From contig CAYYGK010000001.1 in NCBI GenBank assembly GCA_964471145.1, forward strand, positions 1-41,122: a stretch of 41,122 nt of DNA, given 5' to 3'. Both the position numbers and the translations under genes were made by a program. This document shows, piece after piece, positions 14,557 to 20,931 of this stretch (the first letter of the stretch is position 1; each line of letters opens with the position of its first letter). A model generated the notes under the pieces. That model had not been told where the DNA came from. It did not search any database and worked only from the letters and a program-made list of their open reading frames with translations. Origin of the DNA: an uncultured Eubacteriales bacterium. Its GTDB lineage: Bacteria > Bacillota > Clostridia > Acetivibrionales > STF1-152.

Positions 14557-15585
14557 ATAAAAAATGCACATGCACACCGCAGCAGGTACCTGCTTATTTT
14601 TATATTTCTTATATGTACGCTGTTTCTTGTTTTTCTGCTTAATGTTGGCAGGGGTACCATTAAGATAAGCATCAGCGAGGTTGCGGAAATACTGGTAAAT
14701 AACATAAGGGATGACTCAACAAACTCCGTTATCATATGGAAGATAAGGCTGCCGCGTGCCCTTGCCGCTATGATGGGCGGTGCTGCTATTGCTGTTTCAG
14801 GCCTTCTGCTGCAGATATTTTTTAAAAATCCCATTGTAGACTCATATGTGCTTGGAGTTTCTTCAGGCTCAACACTTTTTGTTGCGCTGTTCATGCTGGG
14901 GGGCATCACGCTGGGGCTTCAAAAACTGTCCCCCGGTTACATGTTTATAGGGGCTTTTGTTGGTGCCCTTGCAGTAACACTTATTATTCTGGCATTTGCT
15001 TATGTTGTCAGAAACGCTGTGACCCTTCTTGTCATCGGGCTGATGATAGGCTACCTGTGTTCTGCCGCAACAGGCCTTCTTATGACGTTTGCCGACAGGG
15101 AAAAGGTAAAAGGTTTTGTAATGTGGACGATGGGCAGCTTTGCAGGCTTTACATGGCAGAGCGTTAAAATACTTGTACTGATTGGTATACTGTTCATGCT
15201 GCTGGCATTTATAATATCAAAGCCCCTTAATGCCTTTCTGCTTGGTGAGAACTATGCAGGAAGCATGGGGGTAAACATAAAGATTTTCAGGGTATTTATT
15301 GTTACCGTATCCAGTGTACTTACCGCTGCAGTAACCGCATATGCTGGTCCTGTTGCGTTTATAGGGATGTCGGTTCCGCATATGGCGAGGCTTTCCCTGG
15401 GGACATCCGACAACAGGGTGCTTGTACCTGCTGTAGTACTGCTTGGAGGGATAGTCACAGGACTCTGCGACCTTGCTGCCCGGTCGCTTTTTGCTCCGGT
15501 TGAGCTGGCAATAAGCACCGTTACATCATTTTTCGGCGTACCGGTGGTTATTTATCTGCTGCTGAGGAGGAAGACGGTCCTATGA
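14557..15585 (+). CDS. FecCD/BtuC-family ABC permease (start codon unresolved, see findings)
   Basis: The conserved IRLPRALAAMMGGAAIAVSGLLLQIFFKNP and TM1 (RYLLIFIFLICTLFLVFLL) lie upstream of the first ATG at 14770. The frame is open back to the TAA at 14539, with no in-frame ATG, GTG or TTG. ATA at 14557 lies 6 nt after AGGGGGGG. Confidence 0.8.
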   Translation: MKNAHAHRSRYLLIFIFLICTLFLVFLLNVGRGTIKISISEVAEILVNNIRDDSTNSVIIWKIRLPRALAAMMGGAAIAVSGLLLQIFFKNPIVDSYVLGVSSGSTLFVALFMLGGITLGLQKLSPGYMFIGAFVGALAVTLIILAFAYVVRNAVTLLVIGLMIGYLCSAATGLLMTFADREKVKGFVMWTMGSFAGFTWQSVKILVLIGILFMLLAFIISKPLNAFLLGENYAGSMGVNIKIFRVFIVTVSSVLTAAVTAYAGPVAFIGMSVPHMARLSLGTSDNRVLVPAVVLLGGIVTGLCDLAARSLFAPVELAISTVTSFFGVPVVIYLLLRRKTVL

Positions 15586-16769
15586 AAATACTGAAAACGA
15601 AAGACCTTTCAATAGGATATGAGGGCAGGGAGGTTGTCGGTGGTATCGAAATGGAGGTAGAAAGCGGTCAGATCATCTGCCTTCTCGGCCCTAACGGATG
15701 CGGCAAATCAACAATGCTCAAGACCTTCTCTTCACTGCTTGCCCCTGTCAGCGGAAACGTATACATTGAGGAAAAGCCTTTGAAAAGCATACGCAAAAAA
15801 AAGCTGTCGAAAACAATGGCAGTGGTGCTTACAGAACGCCTGTCAGTCGGTCTGCTGACTGCGTTTGAGGTTGCTGCAATGGGCAGGTATCCCCATACCG
15901 GACTTTTTGGGAAGCTGACTCACAGGGACAGGGATGTTGTATGGGAGTGCATACGCATGGTCAAAGCTGAGCATATCGCAGAGAGGCATTTTAACGAACT
16001 AAGCGACGGGGAGAGACAGAAAATCCTGCTTGCAAGGGCGCTTGCACAGGAACCCAGGCTGATTATACTGGATGAGCCCACCACGCACCTTGATGTAAGG
16101 AATAAAATTGAGGTAATGGCTATACTTAAAAGACTGAGCAGGCAAAAGGGTATAACGGTGATTCTCTCACTCCATGAGGTTGATCTGGCAATGAAAACCT
16201 GTGACAGTGCTGTTTTTCTCAAGGACGGCAGGATTATGTATTTCGGAGCACCCGATGAGACAGAAGGAAAGGAAAATATAGCAAAGCTTTATGATATTGA
16301 AGGCACTGCAGGCTTTAGTTTGCTGCTGGGTTCTGTGGAGATGGTAAACCGTGGCAGGCCTTCCGTTTTTGTGGTAGGAGGAAATGGGAAGGGTACACCT
16401 GTATACCGTTTTCTCACAAAGCACGATATAGGGTTTGTTACAGGTATTCTGCATGAAAATGACATTGACTGCCACATAGCAGATGCCATGGGGGCAGAAG
16501 CCATAACTGTAAAGGCTTTCAATGACATAGAAGTAAATAAGTACCAGGAAGCACTGGGGCGTCTGGAAACATCAGAGTTTGTTATAGATGCAGGCTTTCC
16601 TGTGTCTGATATGAACCGGTTCAATCTTGAGCTTGTTGCAGTGGCTCTAAAAAAGGGCATGAAGGTGTTTTCCATGAGGGGAGAAAAGGATATTAAAGAG
16701 CTGTACGGTGATAGATCAGATAGAATTATCCTCTGTGAGAGGTTGTCTGACATTGAGTTTAAACATTAG
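15582..16769 (+). CDS. ABC ATP-binding protein (FepC/BtuD-like) with an uncharacterised C-terminal domain of about 140 aa
   Basis: Walker A GPNGCGKST, signature LSDGERQK, Walker B LIILDEPTTHLD. ATGA overlap with the permease. Residues from about 255 to 395 lie outside the ABC core. Confidence 0.9.
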   Translation: MKILKTKDLSIGYEGREVVGGIEMEVESGQIICLLGPNGCGKSTMLKTFSSLLAPVSGNVYIEEKPLKSIRKKKLSKTMAVVLTERLSVGLLTAFEVAAMGRYPHTGLFGKLTHRDRDVVWECIRMVKAEHIAERHFNELSDGERQKILLARALAQEPRLIILDEPTTHLDVRNKIEVMAILKRLSRQKGITVILSLHEVDLAMKTCDSAVFLKDGRIMYFGAPDETEGKENIAKLYDIEGTAGFSLLLGSVEMVNRGRPSVFVVGGNGKGTPVYRFLTKHDIGFVTGILHENDIDCHIADAMGAEAITVKAFNDIEVNKYQEALGRLETSEFVIDAGFPVSDMNRFNLELVAVALKKGMKVFSMRGEKDIKELYGDRSDRIILCERLSDIEFKH

Positions 16770-16877
16770 AAAAAAACACACCAGGTTCAAGTGCATTGGG
16801 TAAGTTGAACATGAGGGAGGCTGTATAGTCTGCAGCAGCTGTGGTTTTTCAAAACATGTGTAGAATCTTCCGGATAT

Positions 16878-16937
16878 TTAGCTAATACGATTGACAACAT
16901 AGCTAATATGATATATAATACTCGCAGTTAGCTAAAA
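16878..16937 (+). promoter_or_regulatory. Perfect consensus promoter TTGACA-17-TATAAT (16891-16919) interleaved with three TTAGCTAA palindromic boxes
   Basis: TTAGCTAA at 16878-16885, ATAGCTAA at 16899-16906 (7 of 8 positions), TTAGCTAA at 16928-16935. The 8-mer is self-complementary. Confidence 0.6.
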
Positions 16938-16951
16938 TAAAAGGGCGTGAT

Positions 16952-17671
16952 ATTATTAAGGTACCGTCAACCAAAGTACAGAACAACTTCGGCAAGTATC
17001 TGAAAATCGCATCCCAGTGTGAGGATGTCATAGTTACCAGAAAGGGCAGGGAAATAGCTAAGATGATTTCCTGCTCCCCTGAGAGCCTTATTGCTGAAGA
17101 GGCAGCTGGATATAGTTACACGGGAGGGCCCAGGGTAACTTATGAAGAATTCCTGCAGCTTACGAAAGACTCGGAGTCAAGGTATGAGCTTATTGACGGT
17201 GAGGTCTTCAAGCTTGAGTCACCAAGTTATTTTCATCAGACTGCAGTTGACGAGATATATGTCAATTTTCACAATTGGTTCAAAGGGGAAAAATGCAGGC
17301 CCCTTACTTCACCTTTTGATGTGACTTTGAATAAGCTTGATGACATAAATGTAGTACAGCCTGATATCATAGTCATATGTGATACGGAGAACATTGATGA
17401 AAAGGGCAGGTACAAGGGAGTACCCGCTCTCGTGGTGGAGGTTCTTTCACCATCTACCAGGGACAAGGACATGATGAAAAAGGTCAATCTTTTCATGTGG
17501 ACTGGTATAAAAGAGTGCTGGCTGGTTGAAACAGACAAGAGGGAAGTGTATATTTACAGCTTTAAAGATAGCAAAATAAAGGATTACAGGGTTTTTACGG
17601 GAGATATAACAGTAAACTCCGGTGTGTTTGAAGGACTTGAAATTGCCCTGCCGGAAATTTTCACGTATTAG
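16952..17671 (+). CDS. Phd/YefM-like antitoxin N-domain fused in frame to a Uma2-family (DUF820) PD-(D/E)xK endonuclease; start codon uncertain (ATT 16952/16955, or internal ATG 17063)
   Basis: The frame is open from 16919. IIKVPSTKVQNNFGKYLKIASQCEDVIVTRKGREIAKMIS resembles the Phd/YefM N-domain. It then runs VTYEEFLQL...ELIDGEV...QPDIIVI...ALVVEVLSPST, which is a Uma2 core. The SD-like AAAGGGCGTG lies at 16939-16948. Confidence 0.6.
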   Translation: MIKVPSTKVQNNFGKYLKIASQCEDVIVTRKGREIAKMISCSPESLIAEEAAGYSYTGGPRVTYEEFLQLTKDSESRYELIDGEVFKLESPSYFHQTAVDEIYVNFHNWFKGEKCRPLTSPFDVTLNKLDDINVVQPDIIVICDTENIDEKGRYKGVPALVVEVLSPSTRDKDMMKKVNLFMWTGIKECWLVETDKREVYIYSFKDSKIKDYRVFTGDITVNSGVFEGLEIALPEIFTY

Positions 17672-17674
17672 CTT

Positions 17675-17893
17675 TCATCAAAGAAAGTAGTGTTTCGTGT
17701 TTCTAAGAAAAAGGATGGGGATAATAAGGTTGCTGCTTTGGTTTAATCCGATCTGTCCAAAAAGAGATTCCGTAAAAACTGGGCAATGTTTTAATACAAA
17801 AAATTTATAATGTTGATCCTCTCTGTTGTCCCAAATGTAATAATCCCATGCGTATTATATCATTTATTAAAGATGAATTAACTATTTTAAGGC
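17675..17893 (+). pseudogene. IS91-family (Y2) transposase relic, internally deleted and frameshifted
   Basis: The fragments are VVFRVSKKKDGDNKV, SDLSKKRFRKNWAM, and after a frameshift IQKIYNVDPLCCPKCNNPMRIISFIKDELTILR. The last matches the conserved C-terminal Zn-ribbon end of IS91-like transposases. Confidence 0.6.
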
Positions 17894-17906
17894 AGCTGCT
17901 ACTGAT

Positions 17907-17936
17907 TTGCGGCAGTAATCACTGCTGTGCTATAAT
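17907..17936 (+). promoter_or_regulatory. Candidate extended -10 promoter for larB (TTGCGG-18-TGcTATAAT)
   Basis: TGCTATAAT at 17928-17936, about 44 nt upstream of the larB ATG. Confidence 0.35.
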
Positions 17937-17979
17937 ATGAGGGTATTTTTAACAGATTATCATTATGGCGGTGTGCTAA

Positions 17980-18741
17980 ATGGATATAGAAAGCATCAGG
18001 AATCTTCTTGAAGAAGTAAAGAGCGGCAGGACAGGTATTAACAAAGCGATTTCTACATTGAGAGATCTTCCGTTTGAAGACCTGGGATTTGCAAAGGTAG
18101 ACCATCACAGGAGCCTAAGGAACGGTTTTCCTGAGGTTGTGTTCGGCATGGGAAAGACACCCGGGCAGATAGCTTCTATAGTGGAAAGTCTGATAAGGAC
18201 AGACAGCAATATCATGGTGACACGTGCGGACAGGCATGCATTTGATGAGATAAAAAAAATTATACCTGATGTTGTTTATCACGAAACAGCACGCATTATA
18301 GTGATAAAGAAGAGGGATTTAAAGCCTTCAGATACAGGCATTGCTGTTGTGACAGCAGGTACATCCGACATACCTGTTGCCGAGGAGGCTGCTGTTACTG
18401 CTGAAACCATGGGTAACAATGTAGAACGAATATATGATGTCGGTGTTGCAGGAATACACCGCCTTTTTGCAAATATCGGAAAACTGTCAGATGCGGGTGT
18501 AATTGTTGTTGTGGCGGGTATGGAAGGGGCGCTTGCCAGTGTGGTGGGCGGACTGGTTGACAGGCCTGTGATAGGCGTGCCGACAAGTGTGGGCTATGGT
18601 GCAAGCTTCGGGGGACTGTCTGCGCTGCTTACCATGATTAACAGCTGTGCCAGCGGTGTAAGCGTGGTTAACATAGACAACGGTTTTGGGGCCGGGTACC
18701 TGGCCTCGATGATCAACAGGCCTGTAAGAAGCAAGGCTTAA
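17980..18741 (+). CDS. larB: Nickel-pincer cofactor biosynthesis protein LarB (PurE-like NaAD carboxylase/hydrolase)
   Basis: 253 aa. GFPEVVFGMGKTPGQI motif plus the PurE-like VVTAGTSDIPVAEEA and VVAGMEGALASVVGG. Confidence 0.85.
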   Translation: MDIESIRNLLEEVKSGRTGINKAISTLRDLPFEDLGFAKVDHHRSLRNGFPEVVFGMGKTPGQIASIVESLIRTDSNIMVTRADRHAFDEIKKIIPDVVYHETARIIVIKKRDLKPSDTGIAVVTAGTSDIPVAEEAAVTAETMGNNVERIYDVGVAGIHRLFANIGKLSDAGVIVVVAGMEGALASVVGGLVDRPVIGVPTSVGYGASFGGLSALLTMINSCASGVSVVNIDNGFGAGYLASMINRPVRSKA

Positions 18742-18757
18742 ATTATGGAGGAATGGA

Positions 18758-19969
18758 ATGAAAGCATTATATTTTGACTGTTTTTCGGGAATAAGCGGAG
18801 ACATGACACTGGGAGCACTGCTTGATCTGGGAGTTGATGAGAAGCTTTTGAAAAAAGAACTGGACAAGCTGGGGCTCAATGATGAGTTTGAACTTCACTG
18901 CAAAAAAAAGAACATGTACGGCATTACCGGTACTGATGTAACGGTAAAGCTTATCAATGAATATCATCACCATCACAAAGACGGTCACTCTCATCACCGC
19001 CATGCAAGAAACCTTAAGGACATAATGGATATTATTGAAGGAAGCACCCTCAGTTTCAGGGTGAAGGAGATATCAGCAAGGACATTCAGGGAGGTTGCAC
19101 AGGCTGAAGCAAAAGTACATGACAAGCCGCTTGATGAGGTGCATTTTCATGAGGTGGGGGCTACAGATTCAATAGTTGATATTGTGGGGAGTGCTGTCTG
19201 CATAGACCTGCTTGGCATTGAGAGAATATATTCATCTGCTCTTCATGATGGTAAGGGGTTCGTGGAATGCCAGCACGGAAGGATACCCGTACCTGTACCG
19301 GCTGTCATGGAAATGCTAAAAGACAGCAAGATACCGTTGATAACGGAAGACATCGATACAGAGCTTGTAACACCTACCGGGCTGGCCCTTATAAAGACTG
19401 TTGCCTGTCAGTTCGGCAACATGCCTGCAATCATTATAGACAGAGTGGGCTATGGCATGGGCAAAAGGGAGACGGGCAGATTGAATGCCCTCAGGGTTAT
19501 AATGGGGGAGCTTTTTAACGAAGAGGATGCTCTTGAGGAGATAGCCATGCTTGAAACCAACATTGATGACATGACCCCGGAAGTAATGGGTTATACGATG
19601 GAAAGGCTTTTGAAGAAAGGCGCACTGGATGTTTTCTATACACCCGTATACATGAAGAAAAACCGTCCGGCTTACATGCTTACCGTGCTTGGGCACAGGG
19701 AAGATGAAGACAGGCTGGCTGATTTGATACTCAGGGAGACAACCACCCTGGGAGTAAGGAAGAGCAGGGTCCGAAGGAAGTGTCTTGAACGCAGGATTGA
19801 GAAGTTCAGGACCGAGTATGGAGAAGTGAGGGTTAAGATAGCTACGGGCGGCGAATTTACAAAAGTGACACCGGAATATGATGACTTAAAAAAGATAGCA
19901 GATGAAAAAGGCATTCCGCTGTACAAGGTTTTTGACGATATCAAAAGGAGAGTGGATAACCTTACGTGA
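18758..19969 (+). CDS. larC: Nickel insertion protein LarC (DUF111)
   Basis: 403 aa. N-terminal MKALYFDCFSGISGDMTLGALLDLGV and the His-rich tract EYHHHHKDGHSHHRH. Confidence 0.9.
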   Translation: MKALYFDCFSGISGDMTLGALLDLGVDEKLLKKELDKLGLNDEFELHCKKKNMYGITGTDVTVKLINEYHHHHKDGHSHHRHARNLKDIMDIIEGSTLSFRVKEISARTFREVAQAEAKVHDKPLDEVHFHEVGATDSIVDIVGSAVCIDLLGIERIYSSALHDGKGFVECQHGRIPVPVPAVMEMLKDSKIPLITEDIDTELVTPTGLALIKTVACQFGNMPAIIIDRVGYGMGKRETGRLNALRVIMGELFNEEDALEEIAMLETNIDDMTPEVMGYTMERLLKKGALDVFYTPVYMKKNRPAYMLTVLGHREDEDRLADLILRETTTLGVRKSRVRRKCLERRIEKFRTEYGEVRVKIATGGEFTKVTPEYDDLKKIADEKGIPLYKVFDDIKRRVDNLT

Positions 19970-20931
19970 ATGGGCTTCTTTACAACAGGTTTTCGGATTA
20001 TTTAAAAAACATTTACGGCGGCAAGGTGTACAAGCTTCCGGTTAACCTTCCGGTGACATGTCCGAACCGTGATGGAAGACTTGGCAGCAGCGGGTGTGCG
20101 TTCTGCGGCGAAGAAGGAGCAGGTTTTGAAACCCTGTCCGAAAAGTTTCCCGTTTTGGAGCAGCTTGAGAGGAATGCCGATTACATAAGCAATAAGTACA
20201 ATGCAGATATGTTCATAGCATACTTCCAGAACTACACCAATACCTACATGCCTCCGGATATGCTGGAGAAGTATCTTAAAGAGGCATGCAGGGAGGAAGT
20301 TAAAGCAATATACATATCAACACGCCCGGACTGCATAAGCAGCAGGCATGCCGGTATTATGAGGGACATTTCTGCAAGATACAAAAAGCACATCGTGGTT
20401 GAGCTGGGTCTTCAGACAGTAAACTACAAAGCACTCTCAATGCTGAACAGGGGGCATACCCTTGCAGAATTCATAGATGCTGTTATGATACTTAAAAAAC
20501 ACAATATCGGCACCTGTGCACACTGCATAATTGATCTTCCTATGGACACGGAAGAGGATGTTGTTGAAACATCAAAAATAGTATCCTCTCTGCATGTTGA
20601 CCAGGTAAAGTGCCATACACTCTATATCCTGGAGGGCACAGAACTTGGTGAACAGTACAAGTTGGGGAAGCTTAAGCCTTTGAGAATGGAAGAATATATG
20701 GAGAGAATCATACTCTTTCTTGAATACCTGGACCCGGCGGCAGTTGTGCAGAGGATTATCAGCCGTGCACCAGGGGAGAGAACGCTTTTTTGCAACTGGG
20801 GGCTCAGCTGGTGGAAGATAAGGGATATGGTTGAGAATAAAATGGTAAGGGAAGGCAGGTATCAGGGAAGGCATTTTAACTACCTTGGCGGAAGCTGCTG
20901 CAGGTTCCCGGAAACAGGAAAGCTGTACTGA
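19966..20931 (+). CDS. TIGR01212-family (YhcC/YtqA-like) radical SAM protein
   Basis: 321 aa with the CPNRDGRLGSSGCAFC cluster motif near the N-terminus. The GTG start overlaps the larC TGA (GTGA). Confidence 0.75.
   Translation: MNGLLYNRFSDYLKNIYGGKVYKLPVNLPVTCPNRDGRLGSSGCAFCGEEGAGFETLSEKFPVLEQLERNADYISNKYNADMFIAYFQNYTNTYMPPDMLEKYLKEACREEVKAIYISTRPDCISSRHAGIMRDISARYKKHIVVELGLQTVNYKALSMLNRGHTLAEFIDAVMILKKHNIGTCAHCIIDLPMDTEEDVVETSKIVSSLHVDQVKCHTLYILEGTELGEQYKLGKLKPLRMEEYMERIILFLEYLDPAAVVQRIISRAPGERTLFCNWGLSWWKIRDMVENKMVREGRYQGRHFNYLGGSCCRFPETGKLY

Follow-up and report, generated by a model that had tools for sequence, protein, structure and literature searches.

Here we show that positions 16955 to 17671 on the forward strand of a 41,122-nucleotide stretch of DNA from an uncultured Eubacteriales bacterium (assembly GCA_964471145.1, contig CAYYGK010000001.1; the whole of this stretch is called the window below) are one gene of 238 codons plus a stop, encoding a two-domain protein in which a Phd/YefM-type antitoxin head is joined in frame to a Uma2 domain of the PD-(D/E)xK nuclease fold. 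This fusion is a family-wide architecture and not a local accident, and the genes that encode it carry short palindromic boxes at fixed positions in their own promoters. We consider it likely, with a probability of roughly 0.7, that dimers of the head repress the promoter of the gene and so limit the Uma2 nuclease, which would act as a solo toxin-like or defence-like effector.

The public gene call on the contig is a 202-residue product (P0001) that starts at an internal ATG (17063-17065), stops at 17669-17671 and lacks the head. An earlier interpretation made from the letters of the window alone, here termed the sequence-only reading, had claimed that this frame stays open upstream as far as a TAA without meeting a canonical start codon, and that a gene caller would for this reason report only the shorter open reading frame. 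Re-reading the sequence bore out the first point, as the frame runs back to a TAA at 16916-16918 and 16919-17062 hold none of the codons ATG, GTG and TTG in this frame, and P0001 bears out the second. In-frame ATT codons are found at 16952 and 16955. The end-to-end alignment with homologues of about 239 residues, which begin MKVPSTEVQNNFGKY, places their initiator methionine on the ATT at 16955, giving 238 codons; thus of the two ATT codons that had been put forward as possible starts, 16955 stands in the family start column and 16952 is not aligned with the family methionine. The annotated 202-residue frame is a gene-caller artefact, arising in this genome because gene callers do not accept ATT starts. 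An out-of-frame GTG at 16947, possibly reaching the gene through a frameshift, was rejected as a start since translation from it runs into a stop after 17 codons, and it is also unnecessary because the nearest relative of the gene, at a locus designated L081, has an in-frame ATG. The product of this relative (P0121, 238 residues) comes from an independent assembly and is the second member of the 90% cluster of P0001.

Searched against 5.8 billion proteins, the sequence returned 1,226 matches at E <= 1e-3. Among the best 120 of these, 119 are 236-273 residues long and nearly all carry both PF02604 and PF05685, the lone exception being P0001 itself. A genome scan located relatives in at least 531 species-representative genomes or loci, the hosts of which are Clostridia, Paenibacillaceae and other Bacillales, Syntrophomonas, Halanaerobiales and some Spirochaetes. 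Whether orthologues keep the fusion had been raised as a check in the sequence-only reading, and they do so across the family, in more than 1,200 proteins. An alignment of 35 of these proteins contains 56 invariant columns, all of which are kept in the window, and the longest invariant block of the protein sits in the head (S5 T6.. Q9 N10 N11 F12 G13 K14 Y15). The suggestion that the gene is a decayed antitoxin welded onto Uma2 is unlikely in the light of these data, because the head holds the most conserved part of the protein and the copy in the window has neither a frameshift nor a stop. This copy departs from consensus at 9 of 104 highly conserved columns, a figure that reaches 17 in intact divergent members, and seven of the eight departures outside the start codon are common to the ATG-bearing P0121. 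The window copy therefore shows no decay apart from its start codon. The architecture is already present in the databases, where such proteins are automatically named 'type II toxin-antitoxin system prevent-host-death family antitoxin' (NCBI, JGI). One homologous locus (L066) contains a second, partial copy of the head at about 984-1100 (…NKVSSTEVQNNFGKYLLLANEQDIIVTRNGQE), which has AAT in place of a start codon, lacks upstream TAGCTA boxes and is probably a duplicated pseudogene fragment.

The head occupies residues 1-40 (16955-17074), and the stretch of the frame upstream of 17063 encodes ...IIKVPSTKVQNNFGKYLKIASQCEDVIVTRKGREIAKMIS. It matches the NCBIfam model TIGR01552 (phd_fam) at 29.0-32.3 bits, above the cut-off of 20.8, over profile positions 1-40 of 53. 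The assignment of this stretch to the Phd/YefM type by the sequence-only reading is supported by that match and by the retention of the head in hundreds of homologues, because of which a chance resemblance can be set aside. An AlphaFold2 (AF2) model, predicted as a monomer and with a mean predicted local distance difference test score (pLDDT) of 81.9 for the whole protein, gives the head a strand-helix-strand-strand order (strands at residues 2-4, 24-29 and 32-38, helix at 12-21). Foldseek aligned the first 38-41 residues with Phd (3hs2 and 4zm2), with 2odk and with the N-terminal domain of VapB46 (6jqy), at probabilities of 0.9-1.0 and root-mean-square deviations of 2.3-2.9; among these, 4zm2 is a Phd-operator complex. 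The top matches of the head profile to sequences in the Protein Data Bank (PDB) are likewise all of the Phd/YefM type and in register from residue 1.

When the 46-residue head was used as a phmmer query against 1.84 billion representatives, short matches of 68-305 residues were found, of which nine were read. All nine have the head. Eight run on into the Uma2 region and are thus fragments of the family described here, whereas P0128 shares the head alone and differs beyond it. The search also reaches stand-alone antitoxins of 77-89 residues, and the seven that were checked all pass the PF02604 gathering score. Because of this reach the head is, judged by sequence comparison, homologous to the heads of canonical antitoxins. 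Long matches of 849, 1139 and 1338 residues were considered as possible unions of the head with other effectors and were rejected as repeat or PAS artefacts; at the sensitivity of this search the head was not seen joined to any other effector. The toxin-binding C-terminal segment of Phd/YefM proteins is absent, as the profile matches end at position 41 of 74 in PF02604 and 40 of 53 in TIGR01552, in agreement with the proposal in the sequence-only reading that a whole Uma2 domain replaces the toxin-binding tail. Compared with what defines the Phd/YefM family, then, the protein has the sequence score (TIGR01552) and the fold, and it has neither the toxin-binding segment nor an adjacent toxin gene.

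The head is followed by an acidic linker of about 20 residues (residues 41-60, 17075-17134), delimited by the alignment and the AF2 model, in which residues 47-53 have pLDDT values below 50 and are predicted to be disordered. In spite of the predicted disorder, the 35 aligned sequences share a conserved acidic motif here, with Y53 invariant and E48 and E49 nearly so. Four of the seven amino-acid differences from the L081 relative outside the start codon fall in the linker. The remaining three quarters of the protein, residues 61-238 (17135-17668), form the Uma2 domain (PF05685, COG4636), which matches PF05685 at 99.4 bits (gathering score 27) over profile positions 2-171 of 172 and which Foldseek aligns with 6okh (E 1e-13, TM 0.87), 9y1l (TM 0.86-0.87), 3ot2 (TM 0.80) and 1wdj (TM 0.78). 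Members of COG4636 have been predicted to be PD-(D/E)xK nucleases with a PD-EXX-K pattern in which the lysine is relocated (Feder and Bujnicki, PMC551604). The corresponding residues are D137, the aspartate of the 'PD' motif (codon 17363-17365, aligned to the PD motif of 9y1l and 6okh), E162 in an EVLS motif (17438-17440, aligned to both structures) and K176, the relocated predicted catalytic lysine (17480-17482, aligned to a lysine of 9y1l). All three are invariant in the 35 sequences and present in the window, and the predicted nuclease site looks intact. The domain also matches the PADLOC model PDLC04832 of the single-gene candidate system PDC-S03 (E 1.8e-52, residues 60-236 against positions 8-186 of 188), with the head lying outside the model. 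The literature searched contained no mention of PDC-S03 and no biochemical work on a Uma2 protein.

Upstream of the gene lies a promoter with a -35 hexamer TTGACA (16891-16896) and a -10 hexamer TATAAT (16914-16919), a 12/12 match to TTGACA-17-TATAAT. Three boxes overlap it. Box 1 (TTAGCTAA, 16878-16885) is an 8-bp palindrome upstream of the -35 element and a candidate operator half-site, with its TAGCTA at -12 from the -35 start; box 2 (ATAGCTAA, 16899-16906) lies in the promoter spacer at +9; and box 3 (TTAGCTAA, 16928-16935) falls at +38, about the transcription start and 5' untranslated region (UTR). Two of the three thus have the full 8-bp palindrome, and the longer motif TAGCTAA(T/A)A that they share occurs at 16879, 16900 and 16929 and nowhere else in the window. 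The same organization recurs throughout the family. The 150 bp upstream of the gene (-150 to -1) in 74 homologous loci contain 182 copies of TAGCTA, or 16.4 per kb as against 0.13 per kb elsewhere, a 123-fold enrichment, and at least two copies are found upstream in 68 of the 74. The family consensus of the box is (T/A)TAGCTAA(T/A)A. Distances between boxes cluster at 9, 20-21, 30-31 and 41 bp, close to whole helical turns. Counted from the start of the best -35 hexamer, boxes are most frequent at -11/-12, +9, +30, +34 and +38 to +43, with +9 being the commonest position within the spacer. A box directly follows the -10 element in 62 of 71 loci, and in 48 of the 71 the promoter agrees with the consensus in at least 10 of its 12 positions.

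An invariant head of the DNA-binding type is thus paired with an invariant palindrome at fixed positions in a strong promoter, among proteins that diverge down to 42% identity. Such a pairing is a classic signature of negative autoregulation, and the head is most likely the part of the protein that binds the boxes. Since palindromes of this kind overlap the promoter at almost every homologous locus, they most likely mark self-repression by the head, and a single-chain, self-repressing nuclease is the best fit among the three outcomes that the sequence-only reading had offered. An alternative origin of the boxes as terminal repeats of a mobile element was rejected, as TAGCTA is not enriched downstream of the gene. 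A near-copy of box 2 also lies within the coding sequence (ATAGCTAAGATGAT, 17054-17067, repeat family D2), where it spans the codons I-A-K-M-I, includes ATG 17063 and matches 13 of 14 positions (93%) of the promoter sequence ATAGCTAATATGAT. TAGCTA is found at +90 to +109 in only 9 of 74 loci, so this element is not a conserved fourth operator; the resemblance is probably coincidental, and an additional binding site confined to the lineage of the window is conceivable.

No partner gene accompanies the family. When open reading frames within 2.5 kb of the gene were clustered across about 75 loci, the largest cluster of neighbours covered 10 of them, and no conserved partner was found. A two-gene toxin-antitoxin system was accordingly rejected: the Phd-head/Uma2 gene stands alone under its own promoter and is a one-gene module.

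The start codon sets the window copy apart. A census of 75 start sites (74 related loci and the window) returned 62 ATG, 6 TTG, 3 GTG and a single ATT, that of the window, with the remaining three being offset or partial copies. The gene at L081 differs from that in the window at 13 of 717 nucleotides (98.2% identity). Promoter and early coding region are nearly the same in both, and where L081 reads GATATT ATG AAGG the window reads GATATT ATT AAGG. The ATT at 16955-16957 arose recently from a canonical ATG, by a G-to-T change at 16957, and is not a family feature, because this closely similar relative from the same gene neighbourhood has ATG. It is an ordinary point mutation rather than a new mechanism of initiation. 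The idea that AUU is a designed start is not supported, since the nearest relative has ATG and the family uses ATG, TTG or GTG. A Shine-Dalgarno-like sequence, AAAGGGCGTG, identified in the window and by reference to the upstream regions of relatives, lies at 16940-16949, one position downstream of the 16939-16948 given for it before, with its GGG 9 nt before ATT 16955.

We propose that the protein and its promoter operate as a self-limiting unit. Residues 1-40 would form a DNA-binding, dimerising head, the dimers of which would bind the boxes cooperatively and shut the sigma-70/sigma-A promoter, so that the level of the nuclease is kept low and self-limited. The head would thereby act as a governor and not as an antitoxin, because the neutralising tail and a partner toxin are both absent, and the product would be an autoregulated solo nuclease serving as a toxin-like or defence-like effector. 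In the source genome full-length protein would come only from weak AUU initiation; with less repressor present, transcription would be derepressed and the start mutation partly buffered.

Several observations weigh against this proposal. The head scores 23-26.7 bits against PF02604 (positions 3-41 of 74), under the gathering score of 29.8; of the two profiles that the sequence-only reading had proposed as a check, PF05685 was matched above its threshold and PF02604 was not. The AF2 confidence for the head is moderate (pLDDT 63-74), its profile matches PDB sequences weakly (E 0.03-0.4), and it lacks the helix that follows strand 3 in canonical Phd/YefM proteins, such that its dimerisation and DNA binding may differ from theirs. 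The link to defence consists only of the match to PDC-S03, and PADLOC candidates of this kind are putative systems derived from guilt-by-embedding and mostly unvalidated (PMC12988326). Finally, AUU initiates at about 1-2% of the level of AUG in E. coli (bioRxiv 10.1101/063800), relatives carry a stronger, AAAGGAGTGG-type site where the window has AAAGGGCGTG, and from such weak initiation the window copy may be effectively silent.

This last point bears on how the ATT should be understood. The strongest competing view, which we regard as possible but on balance doubtful, is that the window copy is newly dead, loss of the ATG having been a first step of pseudogenisation that leaves nothing functional or only a head-less Uma2 fragment translated from 17063. 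A start codon that is unique in the census, replaces the ATG of the closest relative, initiates poorly in E. coli and follows a weak Shine-Dalgarno-like site is what such a view would predict, and nonsynonymous differences from L081 outnumber synonymous ones by seven to four with the start excluded. However, selection cannot be estimated from so few changes, those that alter an amino acid are conservative and for the most part in the linker, no invariant residue has been lost and no frameshift or stop introduced, most of the departures from consensus also occur in the intact relative, and a self-repressed promoter would raise transcription when repressor is scarce, partly offsetting the weak start. 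Far less probable is an error of sequencing or assembly at this codon, with ATG in the genome itself. A lone G/T difference from a relative of 98.2% identity falls exactly on the start codon, as an error might, but with 13 true differences in 717 nucleotides the chance that one strikes a given codon is about 5%, which we judge far likelier than an error, and a second difference lies nearby in the Shine-Dalgarno region. A similarly slim chance attaches to an evolved two-isoform design, one of the outcomes envisaged in the sequence-only reading, in which a rare AUU-initiated full-length repressor-nuclease would be accompanied by an abundant nuclease-only form from ATG 17063. That ATG (Met37) is preceded at 11 nt by AGGG, is overlapped by the 14-nt near-copy of box 2 and is also present in the closest relative; nonetheless it is not conserved as a start, its position being Ile or Leu in 32 of the 35 aligned members, the relative that has Met37 starts with a normal ATG, the ATT occurs once in 75 start sites, and the intragenic TAGCTA is confined to the few loci noted above.

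The role of the head can also be read in other ways. It might tether the protein as a switch contained in one polypeptide, parking Uma2 on the phased TTAGCTAA boxes while the linker, with E48, E49 and Y53 as the remnant of an antitoxin tail, masks the nuclease in cis or serves as a protease target; stress or phage infection would then release or unmask the nuclease and derepress the promoter at the same time. We think this unlikely, and if true it would be a new single-gene toxin-antitoxin or abortive-infection architecture and the first function for Uma2; in this genome the negative feedback would then also buffer the AUG-to-AUU mutation and make it nearly neutral. Many restriction enzymes fuse a sequence-specific DNA-binding domain to a PD-(D/E)xK nuclease. 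By analogy, the head might be a targeting device that brings the nuclease to TAGCTA in a restriction- or homing-like manner, the upstream boxes being incidental or self-targets, and the 6-8-bp palindromic site together with the fusion of a DNA-binding head to a nuclease of this fold would suit such a role. We hold it to be quite improbable, as boxes at fixed positions in the gene's own promoter in nearly every locus are the signature of an operator and neither a methyltransferase nor any other partner gene is conserved. Moreover TAGCTA is not avoided outside promoters (144 observed against 91 expected in carrier DNA under a maximal-order Markov model), and the window's low number of octamers resembling TTAGCTAA (7, compared with 19.7 in shuffled sequence) is accounted for by the stop codons that the motif brings into two of the three frames of either strand. 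Least credible of all is the reading implied by the public annotation, in which the protein would be an ordinary antitoxin of the type II Phd/YefM kind and would work with a toxin encoded by another gene; the NCBI and JGI names of the homologues and the TIGR01552 score of the head point that way, but the match spans only the first 40 profile positions and lacks the toxin-binding C-terminus, three quarters of the protein is Uma2, no neighbour is conserved, and in the window the neighbours are an ABC ATPase gene and larB. A self-repressing, governed nuclease remains the reading that we favour.

In the window the gene lies between an ABC transporter of the iron-siderophore or cobalamin type (Peripla_BP_2, FecCD, ABC_tran) and a cluster of larB, larC and radical-SAM genes, its immediate neighbours being the ABC ATPase gene and larB. 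In the ABC ATPase (15582-16769, 395 residues), the ABC_tran match ends near residue 168-200, and the last 190 residues or so have no Pfam assignment. The same downstream genes, encoding a LarB-like AIRC protein, a LarC-type nickel-insertion protein and a radical-SAM protein, are found at L081. Identity between the two loci is uneven: it is 97.8% over promoter and gene (16874-17704), 97.7% over the final 87 nt of the ABC gene upstream, and only 89.3% over the downstream larB, larC and radical-SAM genes (17870-20854). This mosaic could mean that related genomes have recently exchanged the module, or that selection has been uneven. Between the ABC ATPase gene and the promoter, about 119 nt in the window (16755-16873), within which there is a terminator-like hairpin at 16830-16844, correspond to 13 nt at L081 (88-100), where the stop codon of the ABC ATPase gene appears to be the TAG within box 1. 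On the 3' side of the gene, about 165 nt in the window (17705-17869) are absent from L081. An open frame on the forward strand (17815-17937) reads DPLCCPKCNNPMRIISFIKDELTILRQLL; it has no Pfam match, and its sequence is reminiscent of the zinc-ribbon C-terminus of an IS91-type transposase. It may be a mobile-element relic beside the module.

Elsewhere the module is found in other company. An identical homologue of 239 residues (P0016) occurs in five downstream contexts (L082-L086), several of which adjoin PIN-RHH and HepT-MNT pairs, an IS605 OrfB/Y1 transposase, an HNH protein, a methyltransferase and a PLD/DEAD-helicase nuclease. These surroundings resemble a variable or defence-type island and differ from the housekeeping setting of the gene in the window.

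Uma2 is a very large family of predicted nucleases with structures available since 2004, for which the only proposed roles are 'solo toxin' and unvalidated defence candidate. A single gene that is spread over hundreds of Firmicute species and has a strong promoter and a sharply defined candidate operator offers a concrete way into the function of this family, as a single protein and a 70-bp DNA fragment suffice for tests of binding, repression and toxicity. If our proposal is correct, the DNA-binding half of a classical antitoxin has been reused as the built-in governor of an effector domain. The public name 'Phd family antitoxin' is misleading for these proteins. No study of a Phd-Uma2 pairing was found in the literature searched (Uma2, DUF820, PF05685/COG4636), and we therefore rate the family as new in the sense of an uncharacterised combination of known parts, an antitoxin head and a solo nuclease.

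The nearest relatives of the head outside the family are stand-alone antitoxins. With Phd (phage P1) and YefM it shares the N-terminal order strand-helix-strand-strand, in register from residue 1. The heads of these antitoxins form dimers and recognise short palindromes that overlap the promoter of their own gene, a layout matched by the TTAGCTAA boxes of the Phd-head/Uma2 genes. The fusion proteins differ in having no toxin-neutralising C-terminus and no adjacent toxin, in the covalently joined nuclease domain, and in the TAGCTA sequence of the box, which is specific to their family. EzeT and CapRel-SJ46 are reportedly single-chain toxin-antitoxins in which an extra domain neutralises the toxin directly; the present proteins are likened to them only as a regulatory module and an effector in one chain, direct neutralisation in cis being a property of the former. 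The ATT at the start position of the window copy recalls the AUU-initiated infC and pcnB genes of E. coli. The AUU of infC is conserved and regulatory, whereas that in the window is a one-off in a family that otherwise uses ATG, TTG or GTG.

Stand-alone Uma2 proteins (COG4636/DUF820; 1WDJ, 3OT2, 6OKH, 9Y1L; PDC-S03) have the fold and the predicted PD-EXX-K residues in common with the second domain and are likewise encoded by single genes. They are about 180-190 residues long (the PDC-S03 profile has 188 positions), have no DNA-binding head and are reported mainly from cyanobacteria and Thermus, often as paralogous cassettes, in contrast to the Phd-head/Uma2 family, which is found mainly in Bacillota at single-gene loci with a conserved candidate operator. 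Uma2 has been described as a 'likely solo toxin' that is rarely linked to antitoxins (Makarova et al. 2009, PMC2701414). The same work reported Xre-COG2856 and RHH-HEPN fusions, in which a DNA-binding domain of the antitoxin type is joined to an effector (PMC2701414). The family described here likewise unites a regulatory module and an effector in one polypeptide, the two parts in this case being a Phd head and Uma2.

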